DNA of 64,000 nt. Origin: an uncultured Candidatus Saccharibacteria bacterium. GTDB lineage: Bacteria; Patescibacteriota; JACPGU01. Location: the NCBI GenBank assembly GCA_964355795.1, contig CAYHEQ010000001.1, positions 9,849 to 73,848 of the forward strand. Direction: 5' to 3'. Numbering within the stretch: the first letter of the stretch is position 1; each line of letters starts with the position of its first letter. Under the pieces are notes generated by a model. That model did no database searches and was not told the DNA's origin. It saw nothing but the letters and a program-made list of their open reading frames with translations. The translations under genes were made by a program, and so were the position numbers. Positions 13,220-56,402 of the stretch are shown in pieces.

Positions 13220-13233
13220 TAGGGGTCTGTTAT

Positions 13234-13279
13234 CCGAGGTTCGACCTTAGCTTCTGAACTTCCCCAAGGTCGAACCTCG
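13234..13279. repeat. Hairpin repeat family copy
   Basis: ccgaggttcgaccttagcttctgaacttccccaaggtcgaacctcgg. Confidence 0.8.
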
Positions 13280-13325
13280 GATTTAGGACATGTTCCGTTG
13301 TTCAATAGTAAATTACTTTTTCTAA

Positions 13326-13721: not shown

Positions 13722-13744
13722 AAATCGTGAATCTTAAATCTTTC

Positions 13745-14380
13745 TTAATAGCTTCTACTCGTCGCTGACGATGTGAGGTTGGTTTCTCCGCGCACCATCT
13801 GATTGCCAGAATCTAGATTAGCTCCGCTAGTAGCCTTGATGGCCACTTGAAGCTTTGGTGGCATTGACAAATTAGGGCTACTGGTTACTGAAAAGGAAAA
13901 ATTTTTGATCACCACTTTTTTATTATCATTGAGATCTACGGGGGTTGATGAAGTAAAGCTAGCGCTACCGATAGTTTTGGTTTCCTTGGTCTGTTTTAGT
14001 AGGCCGTCATCGCAAACAGCGGGGTTGGCGCAAACGAGACTAAAGATGTTACGAGAGACTTGACTCGTTTTGAAATCCGTAGAATAAATAACCAGCGCGT
14101 TCCCTTCCTTCTGATAGGCATGGATAGTTCTCGCCCCGCCCTTGGTCGGTAGATTATCGTATTCGCCGTTAGCCGCCTTGGCTTCACGGATTATTGATTC
14201 CAAAACATAACGAGTATCTTGTTGTGTTTTACGCAAAATACTAGCGCGCCTCTCCAAATTGACGGTGCTCACTAGCGCGTCAGTTGAGAGCGTTACAAAA
14301 ATAGCGAAGATGGATATCGCCACCAAAAGCTCGATCAAAGTAAAGCCTTTTTCTTTAGGTTTTAGGTTTTTGTTTTTCAT
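13745..14380 (-). CDS. Type IV pilin-like protein (pseudopilin/minor pilin) with prepilin N-terminal methylation motif
   Basis: KGFTLIELLVAISIFAIFV prepilin cleavage/methylation signature. Confidence 0.75.
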   Translation of the reverse strand: MKNKNLKPKEKGFTLIELLVAISIFAIFVTLSTDALVSTVNLERRASILRKTQQDTRYVLESIIREAKAANGEYDNLPTKGGARTIHAYQKEGNALVIYSTDFKTSQVSRNIFSLVCANPAVCDDGLLKQTKETKTIGSASFTSSTPVDLNDNKKVVIKNFSFSVTSSPNLSMPPKLQVAIKATSGANLDSGNQMVRGETNLTSSATSRSY

Positions 14381-14389
14381 AATATGTAA

Positions 14390-14590
14390 GCGATGCGAAT
14401 GATGCGAATTATCATGCCTGCCCGCAATGCTCTCGCCCGAAGCTTTTCATATCTGTTTATAATTATCGTACGTAATATTTAGGGAGCAAACAATATGGGT
14501 GGGGCGCATAGCGAGGCGGGCGGGCGAATCTACGAATCTTGTGCGAATTTATTCGCGATAATTCGCGTTAATTAGAGAAAATTAGCGACT
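14390..14590. repeat. GCGAAT-rich intergenic repeat locus containing a 117-bp MITE-like element (14413..14529)
   Basis: gatgcgaatgatgcgaatt ... ctacgaatcttgtgcgaatttattcgcg flanks a 117-bp segment. That segment is about 97% identical to 36201..36315. Confidence 0.8.
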
Positions 14591-15053
14591 AGTATTTGCC
14601 CTTCCAGTCAGTGAAATAAGTCGTTTCAGAAAGTGTCTTCTTCCCTATTTTGTCTGTCCAGCTAACTGTTACTATCACTTTTTTCTTAAAAATAGTCGCG
14701 CCATCATAAATTATTCCGGAGGAAATATCTGTAATGACAATGTCCCTCGTAAAACCGGCCGGCAAAGGCTTCATCAATACGCCATTGAGACTAGCATTAT
14801 CCGTTCCCGCAAACCATTCGGAAGCCGTAGCCACATTATTATCGCGAATATTGCGAATACTTTCCACCGCGTCTTGGATGATATTGTAAGCTACACTCCT
14901 TTTCTGGGCTGTATCCCAACTGCGCACCGCCATTTGCGCCACAAAATGAAGCGACAGCATCACCGTCGTCAGAATAGCAAGACTAACGACGACCTCTATG
15001 AGCGTAAAGCCGTTTTTAGGTTTCAGATTGTAGGTTTTGGGTTGTAGGCTCAT
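14589..15053 (-). CDS. Type IV pilin-like protein (pseudopilin)
   Basis: NGFTLIEVVVSLAILTTVM prepilin motif. Confidence 0.75.
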   Translation of the reverse strand: MSLQPKTYNLKPKNGFTLIEVVVSLAILTTVMLSLHFVAQMAVRSWDTAQKRSVAYNIIQDAVESIRNIRDNNVATASEWFAGTDNASLNGVLMKPLPAGFTRDIVITDISSGIIYDGATIFKKKVIVTVSWTDKIGKKTLSETTYFTDWKGKY

Positions 15054-15055
15054 TT

Positions 15056-15667
15056 TTAGGCTCTGACCACATCCATAGTAATAATATGGGTAGCCGCGTT
15101 AATCGTAATTTTGTAACGAATTTTTGTGTCTGGAGAGCTGATGATAATCTCCGCCTTGTCTCCCGTAATAAGGGAGTTTGTGGCGTCCGACAAAGAGATA
15201 TTCCCCCCCGTCCTATTGCCCACCGCAAAAGAAATCCTTAGGGAATTATAGGAGGTGGAAACCCCATTTTTGTATAATTTAATATCGGCGATAGAAAGTT
15301 TTTTATCCGAAACGAATCTGTCCAAAACTGGGAGCCCTTCGGTCGCTTCAGAGCCTACCATAACTGTTGGGTTACCCAACGAATCGGTGGTGATAGACTC
15401 GTCCTGCACAGAAGAAGTTACGCATGACGCTGGACACAGGCTGATATTGAAAAAATAGGCAGTAGTTTTGGCGCTCCTTGGCGATAAAGATAGCGCTTGT
15501 GCTCCCCAAAGAACGCTTTGGAGATCTTTGGCGGCGTTGCGAACAACAATATGGCTCCTATAAGAGCGCATATTGGGGATAGCGATAGCGGTCAACGAGA
15601 CGATAATGGAAATCACCACTATCGCCTCTATCAAGGTGAAGCCTTTTTGTTTTTTGTTTGTTTGCAT
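15056..15667 (-). CDS. Type IV pilin-like protein (pseudopilin, GspH/FimT-like)
   Basis: KGFTLIEAIVVISIIVSLTAIAIP prepilin motif. Confidence 0.75.
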   Translation of the reverse strand: MQTNKKQKGFTLIEAIVVISIIVSLTAIAIPNMRSYRSHIVVRNAAKDLQSVLWGAQALSLSPRSAKTTAYFFNISLCPASCVTSSVQDESITTDSLGNPTVMVGSEATEGLPVLDRFVSDKKLSIADIKLYKNGVSTSYNSLRISFAVGNRTGGNISLSDATNSLITGDKAEIIISSPDTKIRYKITINAATHIITMDVVRA

Positions 15668-15675
15668 ACTTTTGC

Positions 15676-15800
15676 GCTTATTTTTTAGCGATGCTAATCT
15701 ACGAATAATATGCGCCTATAGCGAATGTCTATGCAAATAGATTCGCATTCCATTCGTAGATTCGCGCGCATTCGCATTTCATTAGCATCGCGCTATCATT
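15676..15800. repeat. GCGAAT-rich intergenic repeat locus with inverted termini AGCGATGCTAAT / ATTAGCATCGCGCT
   Basis: Multiple ATTCGCAT / TCGTAGATTCGC motifs. The termini are reverse complements of each other. Confidence 0.75.
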
Positions 15801-16632
15801 ATACACCCAAATACCATTGAATAATATATTTTCCGAAGAACAAAGCGACGAGAAATCCACAGACCAGAAAAGGCGCAAAAGGGATGATGTCTTGACGCGT
15901 TTTTTTCTTCAGCGCTATCAGAACGAGGCTAAAGACCGAGCCCAAAATAAAGGCCGAAAAAAGCGCGACTAAAATAAGCGGCCATCCTAACAGCAAACCA
16001 ATGAATGTCCCCAATTTCACATCACCCCAACCCATCCATTTTTCTTTTGAAATCAAAACGAGAAGCAGAAAAAATCCCCCGCCAATGATCGGTCCCAAAA
16101 TGAATTGCCCAATATCTGGACTATAGATGAAGAAATTGGCGCCAAAGTCATTATGCAAAACTAGATTTAATAGCCCCAGCAAAAGCAAAAGTAAAATCCC
16201 GGGCAAAACTATTTTGTCCGGGACTAAATAAGTCCTCGCGTCAATGAAAAATATCGCTACCAGCGCCGCCAATCCTAAACCGTAAATGAGAAGAAATATC
16301 GTTAAATTATAGCCGAGGAAAGCTCCGGCGAAACGAAAATAAAGTCCAGCGAAAAGAAGTCCCATGAGCAATTCTAGCGCCGGATAAAGTAGCCCAATTT
16401 TGTTTCGGCAGTGGCGACAACGACCACGAAACGCCAAAAACGCCAAAATCGGCACTAATTCCAGCGCCGTGAGAGTTTGCTTGCATTGGGGACAACGACT
16501 GCGACCGAAAATAATCCCCTCGTCGGTATTAAATCTGGTGATAACCACCGAAAGGAAACTACCGATGATCGTGCCCACCACAAAGTATAAAGCTAGATTG
16601 AAATAGAAGCTGGTCATAAGATTATTATACAA
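15799..16632 (-). CDS. pilD: Prepilin peptidase (A24 family)
   Basis: CPQCKQ..CRHCRNKI zinc-binding tetracysteine. Multi-TM protein with a conserved GWGDVKLG Asp motif. Confidence 0.85.
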   Translation of the reverse strand: MYNNLMTSFYFNLALYFVVGTIIGSFLSVVITRFNTDEGIIFGRSRCPQCKQTLTALELVPILAFLAFRGRCRHCRNKIGLLYPALELLMGLLFAGLYFRFAGAFLGYNLTIFLLIYGLGLAALVAIFFIDARTYLVPDKIVLPGILLLLLLGLLNLVLHNDFGANFFIYSPDIGQFILGPIIGGGFFLLLVLISKEKWMGWGDVKLGTFIGLLLGWPLILVALFSAFILGSVFSLVLIALKKKTRQDIIPFAPFLVCGFLVALFFGKYIIQWYLGV

Positions 16633-16737
16633 CCAAAAACGTTAGATGTTAATCTTTTATTATTAGGGCTTACGCGTTTGATCTTATCTTTTTTTACCGT
16701 TCAATGTCAGGCGTTCTCTATTGGTTGCTGCGTCTTT

Positions 16738-16776
16738 TGAGGTTCGACCTCTGGGCATCCTTTGAGGTCGAACCTC
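16738..16776. repeat. Hairpin repeat family copy (loop variant B) located immediately downstream of the major pilin gene
   Basis: gaggttcgacctctgggcatcctttgaggtcgaacctc. The loop is the reverse complement of the loop in the copy at 29004..29043. Confidence 0.8.
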
Positions 16777-16881
16777 TTGGCGGGGAAGGTTAGGCGCGTA
16801 AGTCCTAATTATGCCATAATTTTCAACCGAATACGGCATCCAGAAGGATGCCGTATTCGTTGCGCGCTTTTGAATTTCCTA

Positions 16882-17325
16882 TCAACTGCTGGTGCAAGCG
16901 GCCGCAATAGCAACGTCTTTCCCCCCGCTACCGACAGAATAAGTGGCCGTACCCCCTGTCGGGATATTCTCAAGTGTGGCTACTAAAGCAAAATCTGTGG
17001 CGTTAGCGCAATATTTATAAAACTCTGTGGCGTTTGGCGCTACAATATCTTTCTCCACATATCCAAGCTTTCTTAGAGAAGTCGCTACAGCTGGATCCCA
17101 AATAATAGCCTTGAAAGAACCCGATGCCGCTGGATAAGTCCCCATATCCAAAGAATACTGCAATACTGCCTTAGAAACATAATCCAAATCCGCCTTTCTC
17201 TTCCCGTCTCTGGCCCTAGACCGAGCCGACGAGAAAGAAGCCAAACCAATAGTCGCCAAGATAGCGATAATGGCAATAACTATCAAAAGTTCAATTAAGG
17301 TAAAACCCTTTTCTTTTTTTTGCAT
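16882..17325 (-). CDS. pilA: Major type IV pilin (PilA-like)
   Basis: KGFTLIELLIVIAIIAILATIGL class III signal, small 147-aa protein, C-terminal Cys pair (YCANATDF...AAACTSS). Strong RBS AAGGAG 5 nt before the ATG. Confidence 0.8.
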   Translation of the reverse strand: MQKKEKGFTLIELLIVIAIIAILATIGLASFSSARSRARDGKRKADLDYVSKAVLQYSLDMGTYPAASGSFKAIIWDPAVATSLRKLGYVEKDIVAPNATEFYKYCANATDFALVATLENIPTGGTATYSVGSGGKDVAIAAACTSS

Positions 17326-17341
17326 AATTTCTCCTTTACTA

Positions 17342-17393
17342 TTAATTTCTTAATTTCTTAATTTCTTAATTTCTTAATTTCTTAATTTCTTAA
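17342..17393. repeat. (TTAATTTC)x6.5 octanucleotide tandem repeat in the 5' leader/promoter of the major pilin gene
   Basis: Six perfect 8-bp units plus a partial unit. They end 16 bp upstream of the pilin start codon, just upstream of the RBS. Confidence 0.9.
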
Positions 17394-17446
17394 CCCTATC
17401 GTAATACAATAACCTCTCTATGTTAAGGGCCACTTTTCAACAGGCT

Positions 17447-18664
17447 CTAAGTAATAACATTGGAAAGCTGGAATATCGGCATCAATATCGCCAAGACCAA
17501 AAACATTACTCCTAGACCAATAATCAACATAATCATTGGCTCAAGCAATGCCGTTAATCCTTTGATGGCCGTATTCGTTTCATCTTCATAAATGCTAGCT
17601 AATTTCAGCAAAATCTTGTCTAGTTGCCCGGTTTGTTCGCCAACAGCAATCATGGAAGCGACCAGTGGCGGGAAATAATGACTACGAGAGATAGGGACAG
17701 ATAAAGGAACTCCTCTCTCTACCTCGGCGATAGAACCCTTGATCTCTTGCTCTATCAAGATATTGCCAACGGATTCCGAGATCATGCTCAAAGATTTGAT
17801 GATAGGCACCCCGCCCCCCATCAAAAGACCGAGATTTTTGGCGAAGTGAGCCGTATAAATACCGAGATTGATCTTGCCAAAAACAGGAAATTTCAGCGCT
17901 ATCCACCCTATGGTATGTTTGCCCGTGGTAGTCAACATGAAATATCTAATCAACAAAACTGTAACAATGATAATGACAATAGTCAAATACCAATAGCTAA
18001 CGAGGAAGTGGCTCAAAGCGACCATCAGTCGCGTCAATACTGGCAGTTGCGCTCCAGAAGATTTGAAAACATCTTCTAGTTGAGGAATAACATAAACGAT
18101 AGCCACCAGGCCCACAGCGCCGATGGCGCCAATGATGAAGATTGGGTAAATCATCGCCGCCTTGATCTTGGACCGCATCGCGTAATCACCCTCCATCTGG
18201 TCGGCGACATCATTCAACGCTCCGTCCAGCTTGCCAGAGGCCTCTCCGCTCCTAATCATACTAATGAAAACTGGGGAAAAAACATAGGGGAACTGGCCAA
18301 TGGCAAAAGAAAAACTTTTGCCTTGTTCTATCAAAGATATTATTTTGATAATAACCTTAACCAAATTTTTATTAGTTGTTTGCCGAACCAGAGATCTCAA
18401 AGCCTCCATCAGGGGCAGACCAGCGTTAATCATCGTGGCTAACTGTCTGGAGAAAATAGCCTTATCTTTGGCTCTGATACCCGCAAAAATGCTACTAAAA
18501 AAATTGCGCACTCGGTCTTCCGTGGCCAAAAATGGTTTAACGGCCAGCACCGTCAGCTTGTTATAACGCAAAATATCATCCACCGCGTCAATGCTGTCGG
18601 CTTCTACCAAACCTTTGATGACCCTCCCCGATTTGTCTTGCGCTTCGTATTGATATTGATCCAT
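17447..18664 (-). CDS. pilC: Type IV pilus assembly platform protein PilC (GspF family)
   Basis: 405 aa with two GspF-like repeats and three TM segments, conserved across its length. Confidence 0.9.
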   Translation of the reverse strand: MDQYQYEAQDKSGRVIKGLVEADSIDAVDDILRYNKLTVLAVKPFLATEDRVRNFFSSIFAGIRAKDKAIFSRQLATMINAGLPLMEALRSLVRQTTNKNLVKVIIKIISLIEQGKSFSFAIGQFPYVFSPVFISMIRSGEASGKLDGALNDVADQMEGDYAMRSKIKAAMIYPIFIIGAIGAVGLVAIVYVIPQLEDVFKSSGAQLPVLTRLMVALSHFLVSYWYLTIVIIIVTVLLIRYFMLTTTGKHTIGWIALKFPVFGKINLGIYTAHFAKNLGLLMGGGVPIIKSLSMISESVGNILIEQEIKGSIAEVERGVPLSVPISRSHYFPPLVASMIAVGEQTGQLDKILLKLASIYEDETNTAIKGLTALLEPMIMLIIGLGVMFLVLAILMPIFQLSNVIT

Positions 18665-18791
18665 ATATTAGGTAAATCACAAACTACAAACTCCAAATCA
18701 CAAACCAATAATTAACGGCCTAGATTTTTGTTGTTTGAGATTTTTAACTTGAGATTTGTTTGCAATTTGTTATTTGTAATTTGTTATTTTA

Positions 18792-19871
18792 TCAAAGTAA
18801 TGCCTTAATCGTCTCCTTCGTCACCTTGCCTTGAGCCAGTAGTTCCGTCAGCGATTGCTCAAAGGTAGTCATCCCCTCGCTCTTCCCTGTTTCTATAATT
18901 GACTTCAACTGATTAGTTTTGCCTTCTTTAATGGAGCTGATGATCGCTGTATTCGCCACCATCACTTCCGTGGCCGGAATCCGTCCACCATGCACTTTTG
19001 GCAATAATCTTTGAGCGATCACCCCCAGTAAGACATTGGCCAGCTGGGTTCTCACTTGATTTTGGTAATGTGGCGGGAAAGCGTCAATAATCCTATCGGC
19101 TGTGGTCGCCGCTGAACCAGCGTGGACGGAAGCGAAAACCAGATGACCAGTTTCCGCGATAGTGAGAGCCGCCTCCATTGATTCGCTGTCTCGCAACTCC
19201 CCTATGAGAATAACATCAAAATCTTCTCGCAAAGCCGACCGTAGGGCTTCCTTGAAGCTTTTGGTGTCTCGCCCCACCTCTCTTTGATTTATAATACACT
19301 GTCGGGGACGAAAAACATACTCTATTGGATCTTCAATGGTCAAAATATGCGCCGCTCTGGTTCTATTAATTTCTTCCAAGATAGCCGCGATAGTCGTTGA
19401 TTTGCCCGAACCGGTAGGCCCTGTGACTAGAACCAATCCCTGATGACGGTGAGCAAAACTCTGCACAGAATCTGGCAAACCCAATTCATTAAAACTACGA
19501 ATCTCACTGGGGATCAAACGAATGGCGCAAGCCACGCTCCCTTTTTGTAAAAATATATTGGCGCGAATGAAAGCGCGATCTTTGAAGATATAGGAAAAAT
19601 CCAATTCTTTTTGTTCTCGGAAAGTCTCCTTCTGCTCGGGAGTCAAAAGCAAGTGCACCAATTTCTCTATGTATCCCGGTGTTAATCTAGGCCTATCAAC
19701 CAAAGGCAACAATTTGTTATCCACCCGCAGGACAGGGTAATAGCCGGCCGAAAGATGAATATCGGAAGCCCCTTTCTCCAATCCCTCATTGAGCAAAGAA
19801 AATATCTCTGATTTATTATCAGCCAGCGCTGGAATGTCTAAGAAATCATTGTATTCATTTTTCTGTACCAC
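18792..19871 (-). CDS. pilT: Twitching motility/retraction ATPase PilT
   Basis: 359 aa with Walker A GPTGSGKSTT, Asp box, Walker B and His box. Confidence 0.85.
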   Translation of the reverse strand: MVQKNEYNDFLDIPALADNKSEIFSLLNEGLEKGASDIHLSAGYYPVLRVDNKLLPLVDRPRLTPGYIEKLVHLLLTPEQKETFREQKELDFSYIFKDRAFIRANIFLQKGSVACAIRLIPSEIRSFNELGLPDSVQSFAHRHQGLVLVTGPTGSGKSTTIAAILEEINRTRAAHILTIEDPIEYVFRPRQCIINQREVGRDTKSFKEALRSALREDFDVILIGELRDSESMEAALTIAETGHLVFASVHAGSAATTADRIIDAFPPHYQNQVRTQLANVLLGVIAQRLLPKVHGGRIPATEVMVANTAIISSIKEGKTNQLKSIIETGKSEGMTTFEQSLTELLAQGKVTKETIKALL

Positions 19872-19970
19872 GGTAATAGTTTATAGGTTTTAGTTTGTAG
19901 TGATTAGTGGAATAAAATTACTTAATTTAACCTAAAAACTATAAACTAAAAACTGATATTTTTATTTTTT

Positions 19971-21815
19971 CTACAAGCTCGTTACTCTATACACTTCTTC
20001 CATCGTCGTAATCCCTTGCAATACTTTCAAAACCCCGTCTTGCTTCATAGTAATCATCCCCTCTTTCAAGGCTTGATTTAAGATGTCGGTGGAAGACGAC
20101 CTCTGGATAGTCAATTTCTGCACTTCTTCGGAGATAGGGAGTAATTCATACACGCCCAATCGCCCCTTGTAACCAGAGTTATTGCATTTCTTGCAACCCT
20201 TGCCTTGCAAAATATTTTTCTTTTCAAAAGGGATTTCTTTCTTGTATTCTTCGGGGATAGCTTCATACTCTTTTTTCATATCAGCGATGATGGCTTCGGA
20301 AACTTCCGCTTTTTCCTTACATTCATCACAAACTTTCCTCACCAATCTTTGCGCGATAATAGTATGCAGGGAGGAAGCGATGAGAAATGGTTCCACGCCC
20401 ATATCCACCAAGCGCGGGATAGCGCCGGCAGCGTCATTGGTGTGCAGGGTGGACAAGACTAGATGCCCCGTCAGAGCCGACTGCACCGCCATTTCGGCTG
20501 TTTCTTTGTCGCGAATCTCCCCCACCATAATGATATTGGGGTCTTGGCGCAAAATAGAACGGAGTCCTTGGGCGAAAGAATAACCGATATAGGGTTTCAC
20601 CTGCGATTGGCTAACGCCATTCATCTGGTATTCCACGGGATCTTCTAGAGTGACGATATTAACTCCTTCGGTATTGAGCCGAGCGATGGCCGCGTAAAGA
20701 GTGGTTGATTTACCAGAACCAGTAGGCCCCGTCACGAGCAAGATGCCGTGCGGGATTTGGATAGCTTTGAGCAGGTAATCAAAAGATTTGCCTTGCACGC
20801 CCAGTTGCTCCAATTGAATCACTCCCCCACCTTTGTCCAAGATTCTCATCACCACTTTCTCGCCGTTAGTGGTGGGAAAAGTGGAGATACGCAGGTCAAT
20901 CTCGCGATCAGCGAAGACCACATCAATTCTGCCGTCTTGTGGCACTCTTTGTTCATCAATTTTCAATTTTGCCAAGATTTTGATGCGAGAAACAAAAGCC
21001 GGATGGTCCTTGAGGGGGATACTGGCCACTTGATGCAAGACACCATCAATACGACAACGGATTCTAGTGTCCGCTTTGTCGTTGGGCTCCACGTGAATAT
21101 CGGAAGCGCGAGAAAAAACGGCAAATTTGATAATCGCCGCCACAATTCTTGGGATAGCGGAATTTTTGATTAATTCTTGGAGCTGTTCTGCGGTTTCTAC
21201 CTCTTCCTGCACCAAAGTCGCCAGCGCTGTGTCCGATCGGGGCGCTTCTTCCTTTTTTTCTTCCTGACGAGAGGTCTCTTTTTTTTCTCCAACAGGAGGC
21301 ACTGTCTGCTGGACGATTGGTTGCGCTTCTTCCGTAGCGCCAGTGTCTTTTTCCATTAAGACTGGGTTTTTGTACTGCTCTAAAACTTTTTCTAGTCCCG
21401 CTTGGCTAGCCACATAAGGATCAACGTTGATATTGTTTTTACTCTTAATGAAATCAAAAGCTTTGCGCGTGACAGGATCCCATGGCTTGGAAACAGCTAC
21501 CTTGATCATTTGATCGGAAATTGTCTCAAAAACCACCATATTGTATTTGCGTGCTATCTCTTCCGGAAATTTGGACAAAACAACGAAAGGGATCTTGACC
21601 GCGGAAAGATCAATATAGGGCATCCCATAAATCTCTCCGGCAAATCTGGCGATATCTTCCACATTAACCTTTTCTGACCCAATTAAAGCATCTTCTAAAA
21701 AGGCCCCAGATTGCGCGGCCGTTTCCTTAATCTTTTTGGCGCTTTCTTCATCTAGGAGCTTTTTTCCCAGCGCCAATTCTAAAATGTTTTTTGCATTAAC
21801 TGTCATTGAATGCAT
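19971..21815 (-). CDS. pilB: Type IV pilus assembly ATPase PilB (GspE family)
   Basis: N-terminal T2SSE_N domain, Walker A GPTGSGKSTT, C-terminal tetracysteine CDECK...CKKC. A low-complexity insert makes it 614 aa. Confidence 0.9.
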   Translation of the reverse strand: MHSMTVNAKNILELALGKKLLDEESAKKIKETAAQSGAFLEDALIGSEKVNVEDIARFAGEIYGMPYIDLSAVKIPFVVLSKFPEEIARKYNMVVFETISDQMIKVAVSKPWDPVTRKAFDFIKSKNNINVDPYVASQAGLEKVLEQYKNPVLMEKDTGATEEAQPIVQQTVPPVGEKKETSRQEEKKEEAPRSDTALATLVQEEVETAEQLQELIKNSAIPRIVAAIIKFAVFSRASDIHVEPNDKADTRIRCRIDGVLHQVASIPLKDHPAFVSRIKILAKLKIDEQRVPQDGRIDVVFADREIDLRISTFPTTNGEKVVMRILDKGGGVIQLEQLGVQGKSFDYLLKAIQIPHGILLVTGPTGSGKSTTLYAAIARLNTEGVNIVTLEDPVEYQMNGVSQSQVKPYIGYSFAQGLRSILRQDPNIIMVGEIRDKETAEMAVQSALTGHLVLSTLHTNDAAGAIPRLVDMGVEPFLIASSLHTIIAQRLVRKVCDECKEKAEVSEAIIADMKKEYEAIPEEYKKEIPFEKKNILQGKGCKKCNNSGYKGRLGVYELLPISEEVQKLTIQRSSSTDILNQALKEGMITMKQDGVLKVLQGITTMEEVYRVTSL

Positions 21816-21896
21816 ACTGAATTATGATTCAGGATTTAGGATTTAGGATTTAAAAGATTATTCATGAATCATAAATCATAAATCTTGAATCCCTTC

Positions 21897-22175
21897 CTAA
21901 AGATATGGATTCTCCTTCCCCACATCGGCTGGATCAACCACGACTGGCGTATCAGCAATCTTTTTCAGATCTTTCAGTTCGTTATCCAGAACTTCACTAT
22001 AAGCTTGAGGCACGACTACGGGAGGAAAACTGGTTAATTGTTCTGACTTTGGCGCTGTTTTGATGATAGCGATGACAACGAAAAGCACCATCAAAAAAGC
22101 GGCCACTATACCGATCGTATTGATAGCAGAAAATTCCCCTTTCATTTTTTTCAACCAAAAATTAATCTTTTTCAT
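21897..22175 (-). CDS. Small single-pass membrane protein (pilus-locus associated)
   Basis: 92 aa with one TM segment, located between pilB and pilO-like genes. Confidence 0.4.
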   Translation of the reverse strand: MKKINFWLKKMKGEFSAINTIGIVAAFLMVLFVVIAIIKTAPKSEQLTSFPPVVVPQAYSEVLDNELKDLKKIADTPVVVDPADVGKENPYL

Positions 22176-22195
22176 AAAGCCCCCTCACCTTGACG

Positions 22196-22885
22196 TTACT
22201 TCTCCATTTCAAACGTAGAAATAATAGTTTTCATCAATACATCAGCGCCAGTGTTTCCAGAACTTATATTAAAAATGTAAGAAGCGCCGGCTTTATCCAT
22301 TCTGTAATATACGAAGCCCCCATCGGTGCCGTAACGAGGTATTGTATATTTTTCCCATTGCTGATTGCCTGATTTAATGATTTTTTTATCTATTTTTAGT
22401 GAACTGCCCCCATCAGAAAAGAGTTTTTCTTGTTTTTTTATTATATCGTCGTAATCTGACGGTTTCCCACTTTCAAAATAGAAATTATCAGGGCTAAATG
22501 CCCATCCATAGACGAAAGAGGACCTGTACATAGATGTAAACCCTATCACACTGGAAGGAGCATCTGGATTTTTGGGCTTCTCCCAAACAAAATCAGCAGG
22601 ATACCTAAATCTAACGCCAAGATCTTCGTCTTGATATTTTTTCCATGCATATTTCTCGCCATCACGATACATTTCCTCGGTAGGCCTCGTAAGCTCCTCT
22701 GCGATATTGGACTGCGCATCATTGGATATCGCTTTGTTTGTATCTTTTTTATTTAAAAAATCATTTTGCCATAAATAAACCCCTCCACCAGAAACTATGG
22801 CAACCATTACTAAGATAAAAATGCTTGATATTGCTTTCATACCCCTACTCCCTTCTTTTTGTTCTATTTGTATTGCTCCCCTCAT
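22196..22885 (-). CDS. Hypothetical membrane-anchored protein (pilus locus)
   Basis: Probable start at MKAISSIFILVMVAIV (signal anchor). No known domain. Confidence 0.45.
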   Translation of the reverse strand: MRGAIQIEQKEGSRGMKAISSIFILVMVAIVSGGGVYLWQNDFLNKKDTNKAISNDAQSNIAEELTRPTEEMYRDGEKYAWKKYQDEDLGVRFRYPADFVWEKPKNPDAPSSVIGFTSMYRSSFVYGWAFSPDNFYFESGKPSDYDDIIKKQEKLFSDGGSSLKIDKKIIKSGNQQWEKYTIPRYGTDGGFVYYRMDKAGASYIFNISSGNTGADVLMKTIISTFEMEK

Positions 22886-22930
22886 TATTAAATTTAAATT
22901 AGCCTACTATTACCTGTTTGCTTTGCTATT

Positions 22931-23626
22931 TTATTCTTTACTTCCTCCCACTCCTTCTTGATAAAAAATATTCGCCGTTACAGAGAATCGCAACAAAGGC
23001 TGTCCAATACGGACATCGCCGGAGCCATTAACGCTAATGACTTTGATGTGAAATGGCCTGATATTATCTTCCAGCTCTTTGACGAAATTATAAACGGCAG
23101 AATAATTGCCCGTGATATCAAAGACGATTTCTTGCGTTTTCCAAGTATTGGGAGCCGAAGGCTTGACGCCAACAGCGCCAGCGTTAACCCCCGCTTCTCC
23201 ACTGACAACCGTCCTGTCCGCGCTACTGGCTTCCTTGGGAGTAAAATTGGTGATGAAAAGCGAATTGTCCGAAGCGGCTTTTTCCAGAGTGACCAAAATT
23301 TCAGGAATTTCAATACCTTTCGGCAAAGACTGCTCCACCTCTTCAATGAAATCTTTTTGCTCATCAATACTTTTGGCGAGATTTTCTAATTTAGTTTTCT
23401 TTTCCTCAAGCTTGGCTTTCTCATTAGTATTATTGACAATATTCACCCTGTTTTGCTTGTAGGCGCTGTACAAAGGACCAAAAACTAGATAGCCAAAAAT
23501 ACCCACGATGAGGATGACTAAGAAAATGATCGTGCCGGTTTGATTTTCCCCCGTCCTGAAAAATTCCTCCACTTTTTTGGTGTTGAGAATTTTCTTTTTG
23601 GGCTTTGGTGGTAAAAGATTGTCCAT
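22931..23626 (-). CDS. PilO-like pilus assembly protein
   Basis: Short cytoplasmic N-terminus, one TM segment, a coiled-coil (EKAKLEEKKTKLENLAKSIDEQKDFIEEVEQ), then a C-terminal beta domain. This matches PilO architecture. Confidence 0.55.
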   Translation of the reverse strand: MDNLLPPKPKKKILNTKKVEEFFRTGENQTGTIIFLVILIVGIFGYLVFGPLYSAYKQNRVNIVNNTNEKAKLEEKKTKLENLAKSIDEQKDFIEEVEQSLPKGIEIPEILVTLEKAASDNSLFITNFTPKEASSADRTVVSGEAGVNAGAVGVKPSAPNTWKTQEIVFDITGNYSAVYNFVKELEDNIRPFHIKVISVNGSGDVRIGQPLLRFSVTANIFYQEGVGGSKE

Positions 23627-23711
23627 AAAATTCTGTAATTCGTAGTAACTTATTGTAATTTATCGTAATTAATTGCAACCAGACAACCAATTACCACGAG
23701 TTGCCTAATTA

Positions 23712-24359
23712 CTATAAATTACTGTCATCCAATATCCCCTGCTCCTGCGCTTTTTTGGCTTCCTCCTCTTTAATAACTGTTCTAGTAATATCCTTCTTTA
23801 AGCGCAAAGAAATGGAAAATTCTACCTTTGATTTACCGATGTCATTGACCGTTAATGAGGAGCTGATCAAGGAAGCCCCTTCAAAGAAAGAGGAATTATT
23901 GAAAGACACCAGCAGCTTGGCCACGCCCTGATAAGTTTCGGCCGAACCATTGATTCTGACAATCCCCGCCTTGTCTATCTCAAATCGAGAAAAAGACACT
24001 GTTTTCGGTTCAACGCTCTCCACTTCTTTGAAAACAACTGACCAGAAAGGCGTTTGTTGCAGAAGAGTCAGAGCGTTCCGATTTCTTTGCGCGATAGACA
24101 GCCCTTGTTGCTCTACGCTCAAAAGGGCGGCGTTGGCCGTCTTCAGCCCAGTAATAGCGTCTTTCAACACTTCATTTTTGTTCTTGGCGGAAACTTCTAG
24201 TCCCGCGAAAAGTAGCGTCCCCAAAACGAAAATACCCACAAAAATAGCGGAAAAGACCAGCGCCATCTTGCGATTTTGCTTATCTTTTTCGCTCTCCACG
24301 AAACGAGCCGTCGGCTCTCCTACTTCATTGGTGATTTTGGAAATATCAATATCTAACAT
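23712..24359 (-). CDS. PilN-like pilus assembly protein
   Basis: Cytoplasmic N-terminal segment, one TM segment, coiled-coil, and a periplasmic domain, as in PilN. It lies adjacent to the PilO-like gene. Confidence 0.55.
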   Translation of the reverse strand: MLDIDISKITNEVGEPTARFVESEKDKQNRKMALVFSAIFVGIFVLGTLLFAGLEVSAKNKNEVLKDAITGLKTANAALLSVEQQGLSIAQRNRNALTLLQQTPFWSVVFKEVESVEPKTVSFSRFEIDKAGIVRINGSAETYQGVAKLLVSFNNSSFFEGASLISSSLTVNDIGKSKVEFSISLRLKKDITRTVIKEEEAKKAQEQGILDDSNL

Positions 24360-49004: not shown

Positions 49005-50702
49005 TCACATCTTTTTCTTTGGCACGATCCCCAAAAGCCCCAGAGTATTCTCGAGTACTATTTTGGTCGCACGAATCAGCTTCAGCCTCTCGGCTTCTTT
49101 TTCGTCCCCTATTATCCGACAATTGTCGTAAAATTTATGGAAGACTCCCGCCAGTTCATAGGCGTAAGCAGTGATTCTGTGCACTTGAAAGCTCTCTGCA
49201 ATTTCTTGCACTAGTTCCGGCAATTGAATCATCTTTTTGATCAAATCCAATTCGTATTCTGAATTTTGCTCATTGATATTTGTAATTTGTTTGTGTTTTG
49301 CCTGCCTGCGCGGGCGAGCGTTTTGTGTTTTGTGTTTTCTCGCCTTAGCGATTACACTATTTATCCTCGCGCTCGCGTATTGGATATAATGAATCGGGTT
49401 CCTATTGCTTTTTTCCTTAGCCAGCTTCAGGTCAATATCAACATGGGTATTGAAGTCGCGCGAGATGAAAAAATATCGCGCCGCGTCCAAACCAATGTCT
49501 TCCACCACCTCGTCAAGCGTGACGAATGTCCCCTTTCTCTTGCTCATACGAATTTCTTCGCCATCTTTTATGACCCTGACTATTTGAAAAACAATAATTT
49601 TTAGTTGCCCTTTGAAACCCAATATCTCTGTCGCCGCCTGCCAGCGATTGATATATCCGTGGTGATCCGCGCCAACGAAAACTATGACTTCTTGGAATTT
49701 TCTCATCACAAATCTATCGTACAGCAGGGCGATGTCGGACATCAGATAAGTGAAATCTCCGTCTTTGGTGCGCACTACTCGATCTTTGTCATCGCCAAAT
49801 TTTGTGGTTTTCAGCCAATAGGCTTCGTCTTTTTCGTAGACCAAGTTTTTTTTCACGATCTTTTGCCAGACTTTTTCAATCAATTTTCTTTTGAAAAGAG
49901 ATTCTTCCGAGAACCACACATCGTACCTGATGCCAAATTTCCGGCAATCTTTTTTGATGAAGTCAGACAAAATAATATCCGCCGCCAATACGCCCACTTC
50001 ACTTTTGCCCTTTTCTACCCAGCCAATCCCCTTTTTCTTTTTGATCTTGCCCGCGACATATTCTATATATTCGCCCTGATAGATTTCTTCGCCTTCTTTT
50101 TCTTGAACCTCAACCCCCAGTTGTTTCTTGACCGATTTGGTTAGTATATTTTTCACCTGATTGCCGGCATCGTTAATATAATATTCTCGGTGCGTGTCAT
50201 ATCCGGCCATCTCAAGAATCTCCGCCAAAGTATCGCCGGAAAATCCCCCCCGACCGTTACCCAAGGTCATCGGCCCTGTCGGATTGGCGGAAAGGAATTC
50301 CACCATCACCTTTCGGTTTTTTGAAGAAAAACCGTCCTTCGTAGCCTTGCGCGAAGAAGGATTACCCTTTCCGTAGTTTTTCTTGGCTTTCAGTATTTCC
50401 TCCACCGATTTTTCCAAAATCTTCGGCTCTACAAAGAAATTGACAAATCCTCCGCCGGCCACTTCCACTCGAGAAAAATCTCTGATTTTTATCAATTCTG
50501 AAACTAGCGTCTCCGCGATCTCTTTTGGATTTTTGCCTAACTTTTTCCCCAAAGAAAAGGCTACATTACTAGAATAATCTCCGAATTCACTTCTTTCCGG
50601 TATATCCAAAGAATATTCGAGATTTGTAACCTTGAATTTCTTTTTGACAATAGTGTCCAATTGTTTTTTTATCTCCGCTTTCATTATTCTCCTTTGTTCC
50701 AT
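49005..50702 (-). CDS. argS: Arginine--tRNA ligase
   Basis: Class I HIGH-region variant SANPTGPMTLGNGRGG, ArgRS anticodon-binding C-terminal domain. 565 aa. Confidence 0.9.
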   Translation of the reverse strand: MEQRRIMKAEIKKQLDTIVKKKFKVTNLEYSLDIPERSEFGDYSSNVAFSLGKKLGKNPKEIAETLVSELIKIRDFSRVEVAGGGFVNFFVEPKILEKSVEEILKAKKNYGKGNPSSRKATKDGFSSKNRKVMVEFLSANPTGPMTLGNGRGGFSGDTLAEILEMAGYDTHREYYINDAGNQVKNILTKSVKKQLGVEVQEKEGEEIYQGEYIEYVAGKIKKKKGIGWVEKGKSEVGVLAADIILSDFIKKDCRKFGIRYDVWFSEESLFKRKLIEKVWQKIVKKNLVYEKDEAYWLKTTKFGDDKDRVVRTKDGDFTYLMSDIALLYDRFVMRKFQEVIVFVGADHHGYINRWQAATEILGFKGQLKIIVFQIVRVIKDGEEIRMSKRKGTFVTLDEVVEDIGLDAARYFFISRDFNTHVDIDLKLAKEKSNRNPIHYIQYASARINSVIAKARKHKTQNARPRRQAKHKQITNINEQNSEYELDLIKKMIQLPELVQEIAESFQVHRITAYAYELAGVFHKFYDNCRIIGDEKEAERLKLIRATKIVLENTLGLLGIVPKKKM

Positions 50703-52068: not shown

Positions 52069-54717
52069 ATGCGCAAAAAGCTCCACCACCTCCTTTCTCG
52101 CCACCACAAAAAACACCGTCGCCACTCTGTCGTCGGCACTCATTACACCTATTCCTCCGACGAAAATTCGGTAACTCAAAAGTTTTTGCAGAAAAAAACT
52201 CGTCTTTGGGGTGGTTTTTTGGGTGACTTGCTTCAAAATGTTAATTGGAAAAAAACTATCATTTATGGTTCTTTTGGCTTTATCCTGCTGGTGGCCACGC
52301 TCTTCCTTTGGTATGGCAAGGATTTGCCCAATCCTTACAGACTGAACGATCGCTCCGTTACTCAATCAACGAAAATCGTGGATAGAAATGGCCAATTGCT
52401 TTATCAAATCCATGGCGAAGAAAATAGGACGCTAGTGAAATTTGAGGATATCCCCAATGCCGTCAAACAAGCCACGGTCGCGCTGGAAGACAAAGATTTT
52501 TACCGCCACTCGGGATTCAATTTCAAAGGCATCGCCCGCGCTTTCCTCTACGACATCTTTCACCGTCAAGTCAAACAGGGAGGCTCCACCATCACCCAAC
52601 AATTCGTGAAAAACGCGGTGCTAACCAACGAAAAAAGCCTTTCGAGAAAAATCAAAGAGTTCATTATGTCTATAGAAATCGAGCAGATTTATTCGAAAAA
52701 CGAGATTCTTTCGATGTATTTGAATGAAATCCCCTACGGTAACAACGCCTACGGCATTCAACAAGCATCAAAAACTTATTTTGACAAAGATACTAAAGAG
52801 TTAAATCTGGCCGAGTCGGCTCTACTCGCCTCTCTGCCCCAAGCGCCGACCTATTACAATCCTTACGGCTCCAACACTGACGCGCTGATGGGCAGGAAAG
52901 ACTTTACTCTCGACCAGATGGCCGAGCTGAAAATGATTAATCGCGAGGAAGCCGAGAAAGCGAAGAAGGAGGTGATCAAATTCGCCGAACAGACTCAGGG
53001 CATTACCGCTCCGCATTTTGTGATGTACGTGAAAGAAAAGCTGGCTGAACAATTCGGCGAAGCGCGACTGGAAAACGAAGGGTTCGTCATCACTACCACG
53101 CTCGATCTCGACAAACAAAAAATAGCCGAGGAAGCGGTGGCCTCCAATGTCGCCGCCATCAAAGCTCGTGGCGCCTCCAATGCTTCACTGGTTTCTCTCG
53201 ATCCCAAAACCGGACAGATTTTGGCGATGGTGGGTTCGGTCGATTATTTCGACAAAGAAAATGACGGTAATGTTAATGTTTCAGTTCGCCTACGCCAGCC
53301 CGGTTCGTCGATTAAGCCCATCATCTACGCCTTGGCTTTCAAAAACGGCTACTCCCCCGCCACCATGCTGATGGATGTGTCTATTGATTTCGGCCAAGGC
53401 TACCGACCGACCAATTATGATAATAGATTTCGCGGACCGGTGACTATCAGGAAAGCGCTCGGCAATTCCCTGAATATCCCGGCGGTAGAAACTTTGGCGC
53501 TGGTGGGAGTGAAAAACGCCACTGATTTCGCGCAAAAAATGGGCGTCAAGTCGCTGACCGATCCCGACCGCTACGGCTTGTCTCTAGTTCTGGGCGGTGG
53601 CGAAGTGAAGCTCTTGGAACTGGCCTCCGGTTACGCAACACTGGCCAATCAAGGCGCGTACAACGAACCGCTGTCTATTTTGAAAATAGAAGACGGTCGG
53701 GGCGATGTCGTTTATGAATACAAATCCGAGGAACACAAAGGCGAGAAAGTGCTGGACGAAAATGTCGCCTATATGACCAGCAATGTCCTCTCCGATGATT
53801 CGGCTCGCGCCGAGATCTTCGGTATGGGCGGGACATTGACTCTGCCCGGCCGACCAGTGGCCGCCAAATCCGGCACCACCAACGAATATCGCGATGCTTG
53901 GACGATGGGCTACACGCCATCGCTAGTGACCGGTGTCTGGGTGGGCAATAATGACAACAAACCGATGGCTGGAGCTTCCGGCTCTATGGCCGCCGCGCCT
54001 ATTTGGAATCAATATATGAGGCGCGCGCTCGCCAATACTCCGGTAGAACAATTCGTCAACCCGGGCGGAGTGGAATCCGCTACCGTGGACGCCCTTACCG
54101 GCCAGTTGCCTTTGACTGATATTCCCGAAGAGCTGAAGGAAAAACTTCCCACTCGCCAAGAAATTTTCTTGAAAGGTCGGGCGCCGACAGAGGTAGATTC
54201 TACACATAAGATCGTAAAGATAATCAAACCGGCGACCCCTGATGAGAAAAATCTAAAACTGGCCGGCGATTCTTGTCCGGCAAGCCTCGTAGAAAACCGC
54301 GTTTTCTTTGATTTCCATTCCATTATGCCCGGCTGGAGTAATTGGGAGGAAGGCGTAGTGGCTTGGGCCAAAGCTTCCGGACACAACAGTATCCCGACCG
54401 AGAAGCAAGATTGTGATCAATTGGTGAAAGAAAATCAGCCGACAGTGACCATTACTTCGCCATCTGACAACTCTATGCTCTCCTCCCTCATCAGCGTCAC
54501 CATTTCTTACAAGGCGCCGAAAGAAATCGGCAAGATTGAGTATTTCTTGGACGAACAAAAAATCGGCGAAAAGATTAATGACGGCAAAACGAATAATTAC
54601 AATCTGGAGAGCGTGAAACTCTCACCGACCACTCTCGGCTACGCCACTATCAAGGTCGTCCTCACCGACAAACTCGGCCTTGTCGCCACTGATTCCGTGC
54701 CGGTGGTGATAAAATAA
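52069..54717 (+). CDS. Penicillin-binding protein 1A (bifunctional glycosyltransferase/transpeptidase)
   Basis: GT51 motifs (EDKDFYRHSGFNFKGIARA, GGSTITQQ), transpeptidase SSIKP (SxxK), SLN, KSGTT. Confidence 0.9.
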   Translation: MRKKLHHLLSRHHKKHRRHSVVGTHYTYSSDENSVTQKFLQKKTRLWGGFLGDLLQNVNWKKTIIYGSFGFILLVATLFLWYGKDLPNPYRLNDRSVTQSTKIVDRNGQLLYQIHGEENRTLVKFEDIPNAVKQATVALEDKDFYRHSGFNFKGIARAFLYDIFHRQVKQGGSTITQQFVKNAVLTNEKSLSRKIKEFIMSIEIEQIYSKNEILSMYLNEIPYGNNAYGIQQASKTYFDKDTKELNLAESALLASLPQAPTYYNPYGSNTDALMGRKDFTLDQMAELKMINREEAEKAKKEVIKFAEQTQGITAPHFVMYVKEKLAEQFGEARLENEGFVITTTLDLDKQKIAEEAVASNVAAIKARGASNASLVSLDPKTGQILAMVGSVDYFDKENDGNVNVSVRLRQPGSSIKPIIYALAFKNGYSPATMLMDVSIDFGQGYRPTNYDNRFRGPVTIRKALGNSLNIPAVETLALVGVKNATDFAQKMGVKSLTDPDRYGLSLVLGGGEVKLLELASGYATLANQGAYNEPLSILKIEDGRGDVVYEYKSEEHKGEKVLDENVAYMTSNVLSDDSARAEIFGMGGTLTLPGRPVAAKSGTTNEYRDAWTMGYTPSLVTGVWVGNNDNKPMAGASGSMAAAPIWNQYMRRALANTPVEQFVNPGGVESATVDALTGQLPLTDIPEELKEKLPTRQEIFLKGRAPTEVDSTHKIVKIIKPATPDEKNLKLAGDSCPASLVENRVFFDFHSIMPGWSNWEEGVVAWAKASGHNSIPTEKQDCDQLVKENQPTVTITSPSDNSMLSSLISVTISYKAPKEIGKIEYFLDEQKIGEKINDGKTNNYNLESVKLSPTTLGYATIKVVLTDKLGLVATDSVPVVIK

Positions 54718-54755
54718 GAATCGGGATTTTTGACAGCTTTCTTTGGTTTGGTATA

Positions 54756-55064
54756 ATGATGATAACAAAATTAATTCGCCTAATTATGAAATTATTTATC
54801 AATTCTTATATTGAAGAGGTCTTGAAAAAAGCAAAGTATGAATATGGGAAAACGACAGACAGCTGGTGCGCTAGTATCGATATTTTACCTGGTGCTTACG
54901 CGCAAGCAGACACGTTGGAAGAAGCAAGAAGTCAATTAGCCGAAGTTATTGAAGAATATGTTTTGGTGAGCTTGGTTAGCGGTGATAAATTACCGGCAAT
55001 AAACGATCTTGATTTTTCTTTTATATCAAAAAAACAAAAGGTAAAAACTTTGCAAAATGTCTAA
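54756..55064 (+). CDS. hicB: HicB-family antitoxin (second pair)
   Basis: WCASIDILPGAYAQADTLEEARSQLAEVIEEYV. Overlaps the downstream hicA-like gene by 8 bp. Confidence 0.6.
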   Translation: MMITKLIRLIMKLFINSYIEEVLKKAKYEYGKTTDSWCASIDILPGAYAQADTLEEARSQLAEVIEEYVLVSLVSGDKLPAINDLDFSFISKKQKVKTLQNV

Positions 55065-55307: not shown

Positions 55308-56051
55308 ATGACCAACAAAAAAACAAAAAAAAATCGTTTCTCTTTCCGCGGAAGTCAGCGCGCATTTCCTGTCTGCGTTCGTCCGCGTTCCTGTCCGCGT
55401 TCATCCGCATCTTCCCAGCGAGGCGTGGCTCTCATCATCACCATTTTTCTTTCCAGCATTATGCTGACTTCGGTGGGTGTTTTCGCCAAAGAAATGGCCG
55501 AAGAAGCTCGCAATTCCGCTCGGCTGGACAATTCTCTCATCGCCTACTACGCCGCCGAAGCGGGAATCGAAGACGCCCTGCTCGCTTGGCGGTACAATAA
55601 GGACGCGGAGATCTCTAGTGATAACGACAAGAATCCCTCTGTTGATGTGACAGAAAAATTAAATGTTACCCCTCGCTGTGTCAGTCTAGAGACCGACGCC
55701 TTCACAGACCCCACCGTCTGCTCCAGCCTGACCTCCAATTATACGAATTTCAACAATCGGTATTACGCTCTAAAAATGTGGTACAAGACCAATGAAATAA
55801 AAAATTACAAGCTGAACCGTGACGATGTGCTGGAGATAGAAGTGCCTAATTTGACGGGGAATGTGGATTTGAGTTGGGCGATACCAAAGGAGATAAAAGC
55901 ACAACTGCTCCTAAACAATAGTGGCTTCAGTATGGAAATCACCGCTTATGACGAGAACGGTAACATAATACCCAAAGAAGAGGGGGGGAAATTTTTACTG
56001 ATACTCAAAAAATGTCTGTGCCGATTTCAAATCCCATTGGTAATAAAATAA
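55308..56051 (+). CDS. PilX-like minor pilin / pilus-associated protein, probably truncated or phase-variable at a G7 tract
   Basis: QRGVALIITIFLSSIMLTSVGVFA resembles the PilX N-terminal domain. The true start is probably internal (GTG at VALIIT). The ORF ends 66 bp after a G7 run, and a second frame continues downstream. Confidence 0.4.
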   Translation: MTNKKTKKNRFSFRGSQRAFPVCVRPRSCPRSSASSQRGVALIITIFLSSIMLTSVGVFAKEMAEEARNSARLDNSLIAYYAAEAGIEDALLAWRYNKDAEISSDNDKNPSVDVTEKLNVTPRCVSLETDAFTDPTVCSSLTSNYTNFNNRYYALKMWYKTNEIKNYKLNRDDVLEIEVPNLTGNVDLSWAIPKEIKAQLLLNNSGFSMEITAYDENGNIIPKEEGGKFLLILKKCLCRFQIPLVIK

Positions 56052-56326
56052 AAATTATTCGTATCAAGCCTTGGTACACAAAAGTAGTGACTGATGGAAC
56101 GCAACCCAGAACTGAAGGCGCACCGATAGCCGGGGTCACCCCCTCTGTTCTCCTCAACGCTTCCTCTGGCTCTGACCTCATGACCACACCCATCACCCAC
56201 ATTGAATCCATCGGCTATTACGGCGGAGTAGCGCGCAAGATTTCCGTTGACCTCGACCGCGCCACCGGCAAAATCATCGGGATGCTGGATTATGCTATCT
56301 ATTCGGAATCAACATTAGTAAAGTAG
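56012..56326 (+). CDS. Possible C-terminal continuation of the PilX-like gene in the +2 frame
   Basis: This frame is open from 55964, upstream of the G7 tract. Adding one G at 55982..55988 would fuse it to the 55308 ORF. Confidence 0.3.
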   Translation: MSVPISNPIGNKIKIIRIKPWYTKVVTDGTQPRTEGAPIAGVTPSVLLNASSGSDLMTTPITHIESIGYYGGVARKISVDLDRATGKIIGMLDYAIYSESTLVK

Positions 56327-56402
56327 CTCGTCATTCGTTTCTTTGTCATTCCCAGCTTGACTGGAAATCCATTACAGCAAGAATAAATGTGGTAACACAA
56401 AG

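Follow-up and report, generated by a model that had tools for sequence, protein, structure and literature searches.

The locus

We analysed a stretch of 64,000 nucleotides (nt) from contig CAYHEQ010000001.1 of an uncultured Candidatus Saccharibacteria bacterium (GenBank assembly GCA_964355795.1). We call this whole stretch the window, and all positions without another label are positions in it. At 55308..56326 it contains a gene for a PilX/GspK-like minor pilin that is divided between two reading frames. A preliminary description had attributed this division to a run of seven G, and had suggested either slipped-strand phase variation or a homopolymer sequencing error as its cause. The features of the gene are as follows:

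55308..56326, plus strand: the whole disrupted PilX/GspK-like minor pilin gene, 339 amino acids (aa) with one T restored, as given by end-to-end alignment with homologues
55308..56051, plus strand: upstream open reading frame (ORF) with an ATG start, 247 aa, comprising 229 native residues and an 18-aa out-of-frame tail (LLILKKCLCRFQIPLVIK)
55366..55408, plus strand: imperfect tandem repeat in the part that encodes the long leader, period 10-12 / 22, consensus GTCCGCGTTC / 22-nt unit, 2-3.6 copies
55425..55490, plus strand: hydrophobic N-terminal pilin helix segment, after the prepilin-type junction between G39 and V40; position +5 is Ile, not Glu
55982..55988, plus strand: G7 run, made up of the last base of GAG (Glu) and GGG GGG (Gly-Gly), with the frame of the orthologues kept
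55992..55996, plus strand: T5 run, the inferred site of a 1-nt deletion; ancestral TTT TTT (Phe-Phe)
55997..56326, plus strand: downstream part in the +2 frame, which codes for ~110 conserved aa of the C-terminus (IIRIKPWY ... IESIGYYGGVARKI ... DYAIYSE) and is now out of frame

From 55974, the window reads ...AAA GAA GAG GGG GGG AAA TTT TTA CTG... The run of seven G is at 55982..55988 as described, and the +2 frame, which has a stop at 55961..55963, is open from 55964 up to the stop at 56324..56326. The upstream ORF is identical to the database protein P0001; it was also described correctly, except that its stop codon ends 63 nt after the G-run and not 66. If one base is inserted anywhere within the overlap of the two frames, they are fused into a protein of 339 aa (about 340 aa had been expected). 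The PilX-like N-terminus that had been recognized in this protein, QRGVALIITIFLSSIM, occupies residues 37-52.

The two frames are halves of one gene

A search with the fused protein returned 35 proteins, one of which was the window's own 247-aa product (P0001). The other 34 homologues have 266-360 aa, and most of them cover 85-100% of the fused query. In a profile search against 1.84 billion representatives, we obtained 200 clusters at E ≤ 1e-30 and 716 clusters at E ≤ 1e-10. About 200 homologue clusters encode the protein as one chain of 260-380 aa, and all of those with a named source are from Patescibacteria. Of the best 150 representatives, nearly all span positions ~5-298 of the profile (which has 301) in one stretch, and P0001 spans only positions 5-188. 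The alignment through the junction has two strongly conserved blocks: the N-terminal helix region, and a C-terminal block (IIRIKPWY ... IESVGYYGGVARKI ...) that is wholly inside the +2 frame of the window.

We also used tblastn to compare the closest intact orthologue with the window. This orthologue (P0002, 71% identity) is encoded on contigs L001 and L002, which are from the same groundwater well as the two ENA contigs that match the window (see below). Its residues 1-227 align to 55308..55997 and its residues 219-332 align to 55970..56323, in different frames, and the frame switch falls between 55970 and 55997. In 11 of 12 related loci, the same query gave one high-scoring segment pair in a single frame; the exception is a distant locus, L028, with two segment pairs in the same frame. 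The two-frame pattern was found only in the window. L021 and L057 look odd in our table of loci, yet they too are in a single frame and are merely distant. Neither the scans of genome and metagenome contigs nor the tblastn frame analysis showed any recurrent frameshifts in relatives.

By this comparison, the two frames are halves of one ancestral gene. The idea that they make up one protein is borne out, as all of the homologues are single chains. The preliminary description had also raised the prospect of orthologues that end at the same position; we found none, and none of the related loci is split there.

The missing base is in the T-run

In L001 and L002, the codons at this site are GAA GAA GGG GGG AAG TTT TTT ACT, or E-E-G-G-K-F-F-T. 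Two more distant orthologues, in L005 and L007 (54% and 46% identity), have GGA GGG AAG TTT TTT ACT. Aligned to these codons, the window has GAA GAG GGG GGG AAA TTT TT- ACT. Because the orthologues read TTT TTT, and because the Glu-Gly-Gly-Lys-Phe codons of the window keep to the orthologues' frame, the comparison places the missing base in the T-run: it is one T of an ancestral T6, which is now T5 at 55992..55996, 4 nt downstream of the G7. The seventh G of the G7 comes from a synonymous change (GAA>GAG) beside GGG GGG; L001 has GAA GGG GGG there. At the codon level, then, the G7 is an in-frame bystander and not the lesion.

Within the overlap, 218 distinct repairs by a single base (or by a 2-nt deletion) are possible, and we scored all of them against a hidden Markov model (HMM) of the family. 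Restoring T6 ranked first of the 218, with 378.4 bits. Extending the G-run to G8, which gives GGEIFT, ranked 50th of 218, with 374.8 bits. Lys or Arg precedes F-T in 10 of the 13 intact homologues that we aligned, and the G8 repair would change K-F to E-I. The G tract is not conserved: it is G6 in L001 and G2-G3 (GGG or the split GGAGGG) in L004, L005, L007, and L008. A +1 slip in the G7 would nevertheless restore the frame, as a suppressor. Both the codon comparison and the ranking of repairs place the lesion in the T5 run, so the view that the gene is split at the G7 does not hold. A homopolymer can be the most striking one near a frame break without being the lesion; it is a codon-level comparison with orthologues that decides.

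Identity of the protein

A Pfam scan of the restored window protein found no families, even at E ≤ 10. Since the window copy is below the Pfam thresholds, we argue for its membership through its homologues and through structure. The PilX N-terminal domain (PF14341) matches 9 of 33 family members, with a best E value of 5.7e-9. Three homologues are named as PilX-type by NCBI, JGI, and UniRef, and one that is 47% identical is the NCBI "PilX N-terminal domain-containing protein." All members have a basic leader, an invariant Gly, [IVF]AL[ILV], and a hydrophobic helix, and G39, A41, L42, and T45 are invariant in the alignment. Glu5 is absent from all 26 members that we found by the motif (26/26); they have I, T, or V at position +5. 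The absence of Glu5 marks the capping K subunit (GspK/PilX) and PilA, which are both placed at filament tips (PMC9934059).

An AlphaFold (AF2) model of P0002 has a predicted local distance difference test (pLDDT) of 82 and a predicted template modelling score (pTM) of 0.72. It has an N-terminal helix of 59 residues (30-88) that is followed by beta-sheets. The modelled fold is pilin-like, and its top structure matches are GspK-type and minor pilins. In its predicted fold, its N-terminal signature, and its lack of Glu5, the protein resembles tip minor pilins of the PilX/GspK/PilA type. The earlier identification as a PilX-type minor pilin thus fits the PF14341 matches, the pilin-like fold, and the missing Glu5. 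We file the protein as PilX_N-like by homology, rather than as a proven K subunit, and its role at the pilus tip is a prediction.

The closest known systems are the K minor pilins of the PilX/GspK type: PilX of P. aeruginosa (PF14341), GspK of enterotoxigenic E. coli (PDB 3CI0), and XcpX of P. aeruginosa (PDB 5VTM). Like these, our family has a basic leader, a Gly, and a hydrophobic helix without Glu5; the modelled orthologue has a long alpha1 helix and then a beta-rich globular part; and the window also encodes a prepilin peptidase and full pilus machinery. Unlike these, the protein has just 9-14% identity to the solved structures, its conserved C-terminal block has no named domain, and the window gene is frameshifted and lies outside of any operon of the fimU-pilVWXE or gspHIJK type.

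The minor pilin PilA of Streptococcus sanguinis (PDB 7O5Y) is also similar. It too lacks Glu5, its signal is degenerate, and it belongs to a monoderm-type pilus, as would be expected for Patescibacteria. A position at the filament tip and a role in initiating assembly have been proposed for PilA (PMC9934059). The differences are that the PilA crystal has 128 residues, compared to about 300 mature residues here, that the two proteins are 14% identical, and that the gene for PilA shares an operon with those for PilB and PilC.

The leader of the window protein is unusually long, with 39 aa before the Gly. Leaders have 31-40 aa in this subclade and 6-35 aa in the rest of the family. P0002 lacks 8 aa exactly where the window has the tandem repeat (55366..55408).

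Consequence and age of the break

Residue 229 is the last one translated in the native frame; 18 unrelated residues follow before the stop at 56051. The 110 residues that are lost correspond to strands 234-237, 244-253, 274-298, 301-310, and 316-324 of the P0002 model, or about five beta-strands of the globular domain (mostly with pLDDT of 86-93), and they include the best-conserved block of the family. Because this C-terminal block is removed, the truncated product is most likely non-functional. We sought a compensating paralogue within the window and found none.

The downstream frame has no further stops or indels. Because it is still clean, we infer that the deletion is recent compared with the divergence from orthologues. 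Against orthologues, the ratio of nonsynonymous to synonymous substitutions (dN/dS) is 0.14-0.28 for the downstream part and 0.11-0.20 for the upstream part, with dS near saturation; both ratios are low, and they cannot separate the hypotheses discussed below.

The same allele in three assemblies

The G7/T5 state is identical in three assemblies: the window and two contigs from ENA. L003 (ERZ1292617, Hain_H52_01um_R3) is a contig of 6,019 nt that differs from the window by one single-nucleotide polymorphism (at 53129) over 3,937 nt. L112 (ERZ1292616, Hain_H52_01um_R1) is a contig of 7,262 nt with 100% identity to the window over 6,044 nt. The names of these contigs match the 0.1 μm filter replicates from well H52 of a study of Hainich groundwater, which appears to be their source (PMC8672522). 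In that study, each filter replicate was extracted, sequenced (NextSeq 500, 2x150), and assembled alone with metaSPAdes. If the contigs are from that study, then one population was sequenced from separate libraries, each of which was assembled independently.

The H52 0.1 μm samples contain two related populations. The gene is intact in one of them (L001/L002) and frameshifted in the other (L003/L112), and the two proteins are about 71% identical. The GGGGGG AAG TTTTTT of the intact population was assembled unbroken in the same libraries. As the DNA of L001 is only about 72% identical to the window, we rejected a chimeric assembly of the two populations.

Long ORFs fill most of the window (a crude greedy count gives 86% coding), and no other gene in it looks split. 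This is despite 346 T-runs of at least 5 and 231 runs of 6 or more bases. Random read error is very unlikely to explain the T5, because the separate replicates agree, because the T6 of the sister population was assembled, and because the remaining ORFs are unbroken. Of the two explanations that had been offered, the homopolymer sequencing error is therefore unlikely, in its random form, given the same T5/G7 in three assemblies (two of them named ENA replicates).

A probable loss-of-function allele

We propose that a single gene occupies the locus and that it encodes a minor pilin of the PilX/GspK type, with a pilin fold and without Glu5; pilins of this sort cap or prime type IV filaments. In a groundwater population of Microgenomates-like Patescibacteria, a genuine 1-nt deletion in a short coding T-run (T6>T5) would have removed the conserved C-terminal ~110 aa, and the function would have been lost with them. 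On balance, we consider it likely that the window carries a genuine and recent loss-of-function allele of this gene. The allele is presumably fixed in the population.

Several points weigh against this proposal. The advantage of the T6 repair over the G8 repair is only 3.6 bits, and it is parsimony at the DNA level that carries most of the weight. The coverage of the contigs is low (k-mer coverage of 3.6-4.2), and the alleles at 55982..55996 are known from the assembled consensus. The three assemblies are from one well, and probably from one sampling date, so they speak for one population and not for stability over time. The intact downstream frame would fit a reversible switch or a systematic artefact equally well. 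The absence of any Pfam match to the window protein, described above, belongs here as well.

If the proposal is correct, then the change is like those in ordinary frameshift pseudogenes with short homopolymers. There is a single 1-nt deletion in a coding mononucleotide run, the relatives are all intact, and the downstream frame is as clean as would be expected just after inactivation. A deletion in a short homopolymer is ordinary and nothing new in kind, and the PilX-N-terminal label is already in public annotation. As found, it matters little, being one more frameshifted gene in a metagenome-assembled genome. The annotation should be corrected, with the ORFs at 55308..56051 and 56012..56326 described as one pseudogene, or as a 339-aa PilX-type minor pilin if T6 is restored. 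Of more interest is the family, which has at least 200 sequence clusters of pilin-like proteins without Glu5, from Patescibacteria where named. The gene adjoins a class A penicillin-binding protein (PBP), and not a pilus operon, in three of the four close loci with gene calls, and this population appears to have just lost it.

Alternative explanations

In slipped-strand phase variation, the G7 and/or the T5 would be a reversible ON/OFF switch, and the sequenced state would be OFF. We consider this unlikely. Surface pilus components are classic targets of phase variation, and the gene has two adjacent homopolymers that are each one step from restoring the frame: a +1 slip in either tract would turn it ON, with G8 giving GGEIFT and T6 giving GGKFFT. 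The downstream frame is also fully intact. Cut-offs for candidate phase-variable tracts are at least 7 for G/C and at least 10 for A/T, and the G7 just reaches the lowest G/C cut-off (PMC6321876). However, the lesion is in the T-run, and T5/T6 is far below the cut-off for A/T. The G tract lacks conservation, and so nothing hints that a mutable tract has been selected for. The gene is split at this site in none of about 12 related loci and in almost none of the best 150 family representatives, and all three assemblies are in the same state. The G7 run is no more than chance expectation (1 G run of at least 7 observed on this strand, versus 0.46 expected with independent bases or 0.59 with a first-order Markov model), and the G/C runs of at least 7 in the window are at or below expectation. 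Given the unconserved tract, the unsplit relatives, the short T5/T6, and the agreement of three assemblies, the suggestion of phase variation is unsupported.

Phase variation by simple sequence repeats (such as the poly-G tracts of Neisseria pilC or of Campylobacter surface genes) is similar to this locus in that a homopolymer lies in the frame of a pilus gene and one base would toggle it. It is unlike this locus in that the break is in the T5/T6 run instead of the G tract, the tracts are short and unconserved, there is no length polymorphism among the three assemblies, and there are no recurrent frameshifts among relatives. Searches of JGI metagenome contigs, using a pattern with exact flanks and a variable gap, found no copies from the same strain with other tract lengths.

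A specific form of this idea, which we think improbable, is that the G7 and T5 together form a reversible switch with two tracts, which operates at a low rate and controls a tip-type minor pilin of an ultra-small episymbiont. The OFF state would be reverted at the T5, or G7>G8 would suppress it with a change of just two residues (KF>EI). If this is true, the population would keep a reservoir of cells with and without the pilus-tip protein. To our knowledge, phase variation of this type is undocumented in the Candidate Phyla Radiation. If reads contained mixed tract lengths, the locus would be an example of a phase-variable pilus tip component in an uncultured lineage of episymbionts.

The window has two other G/C7 runs, which are both C7 on the plus strand and within intact ORFs. 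The run at 15203..15209 is in a pilin-like gene (15056..15667), and the run at 50245..50251 is in the gene for arginyl-tRNA synthetase (49005..50702). Both read as G7 in the sense of their minus-strand genes. On formal grounds, the C7 of the pilin gene would make a stronger candidate mutable tract than the G7 at 55982..55988.

A systematic artefact, with a true genome that has T6 and an intact gene, is quite unlikely. A context-specific Illumina error would have to drop one T in every library; one example of a cause would be seven dark G cycles with two-colour chemistry. The break is in a homopolymer that comes right after the G7 run, the k-mer coverage is low, the downstream frame is pristine, and no intact allele of the same strain was found in our protein searches, all of which are consistent with such an artefact. 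On the other side, the same T5 is found in three assemblies, and both of those from ENA were separately prepared and assembled. No other gene in the 64-kb window looks split, despite the many T-runs and the two other G/C7 runs, and the corresponding sequence of the related population was assembled correctly from the same libraries. Indel errors in Illumina reads at runs of 5-6 nt are rare and strand-specific, and they are normally removed by a consensus from two directions.

It is very improbable that recoding yields some full-length protein (GGKFLTDTQK...) from the T5 allele, either by a -1 ribosomal shift on A UUU UUA (55991..55997) or by stuttering of RNA polymerase. The required shift is indeed -1, the zero-frame A UUU UUA is one base off from U UUU UUA, which is a well-known slippery heptamer, and a purine-rich stretch (GAGGGGGGG) is just upstream. 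However, this imperfect heptamer is all that we found at the site: there was no canonical zero-frame slippery heptamer (X XXY YYZ) with a conserved stimulatory structure. The RNA downstream does not fold stably (z = -0.6 for 55975..56100), and there was no Rfam match around the break. The Shine-Dalgarno-like stretch is only 3-6 nt upstream, and this spacing favours +1 shifts, not -1 shifts. The orthologues are all in a single frame, with nothing conserved, and the runs are too short for efficient transcriptional slippage.

Finally, a shorter pilin-like protein and an independent 104-aa protein might be two genuine genes, as an ATG at 56012 opens a 104-aa ORF (56012..56326) that gene callers annotated on both L003 and L112, but this is almost certainly wrong: no homologue has such a split, the C-terminal block occurs only in fusion with the N-terminal part, the two ORFs overlap by 40 nt with native homology running through the overlap, and the C-terminal strands belong to the same globular domain in the orthologue model. 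We rejected two separate genes as contradicted by the architecture of the family.

Neighbouring genes and other features

Two features lie upstream of the PilX-like gene:

52069..54717, plus strand: class A PBP (transglycosylase and transpeptidase), from Pfam matches on the identical gene in L003
54756..55275, plus strand: hicB/hicA toxin-antitoxin pair (UPF0150/HicB-like and HicA_toxin), between the PBP and pilin-like genes

The neighbours of the window gene are thus the class A PBP, hicBA, and RsgA. The hicBA insertion is in this lineage only and is absent from the same place in L005. Of the four orthologous loci that have gene calls, three (L005, L006, and L008) have the gene for the class A PBP as the upstream neighbour. 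L007 is without an upstream PBP, and the upstream gene of L001 carries no call. The upstream arrangement is arginyl-tRNA synthetase, tyrosyl-tRNA synthetase, and PBP1A in L005 and L006, and tyrosyl-tRNA synthetase and PBP1A in L008. Other neighbours at orthologous loci are NHL-repeat proteins (L001, L005, L006, and L008); none are pilins. We found no operon with the tip minor pilins H, I, and J, either at the window locus or at the orthologous loci with gene calls. In the Microgenomates locus (L005, 5422..8948), the stop of the PBP and the start of the PilX-like gene meet at one coordinate, suggesting that expression of the two proteins is coupled.

The window does contain a complete cluster for type IV pilus machinery, which would process and assemble the PilX-like product. 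It is on the other strand and 31 kb from the PilX-like gene:

12693..24359, minus strand: type IV pilus machinery cluster
12693..13142 and 13326..13721, minus strand: small ORFs of the cluster
13745..14380, 14589..15053, and 15056..15667, minus strand: three N_methyl pilins
15799..16632, minus strand: prepilin peptidase (PilD, peptidase A24)
17447..18664, minus strand: PilC (T2SSF)
18792..19871, minus strand: PilT-like ATPase (T2SSE)
19971..21815, minus strand: PilB ATPase (T2SSE)
22931..23626, minus strand: PilO
23712..24359, minus strand: PilN

A perfect sigma-70 consensus promoter (TTGACA, 16 nt, TG, TATAAT; 12/12) is at 54730..54757, in the 38-nt gap between the PBP gene and hicB. Because its -10 box overlaps the first ATG of the hicB ORF, hicB probably starts at 54786, as called on L003. 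This promoter may also drive the PilX-like gene.

Just after the PilX-like gene is a palindromic element of 29 nt (56343..56371), TTGTCATTCCCAGCTTGACTGG(G/A)AATCCA, with an 8-bp stem (ATTCCCAG/CTGGGAAT). It recurs nearly unchanged at intergenic spots in L001 (3192..3221 and 3570..3598) and in L002 (1368..1397), where the flanking DNA is only about 72% identical or is unrelated. The element matches nothing in Rfam and is not followed by a T-tail; it may be a binding site for a protein or a small intergenic repeat.

Near the start of the window is a restriction-modification pair (287..1829, minus strand), with an endonuclease of the MvaI/BcnI family at 287..1159 and an N4/N6 DNA methylase at 1083..1829.

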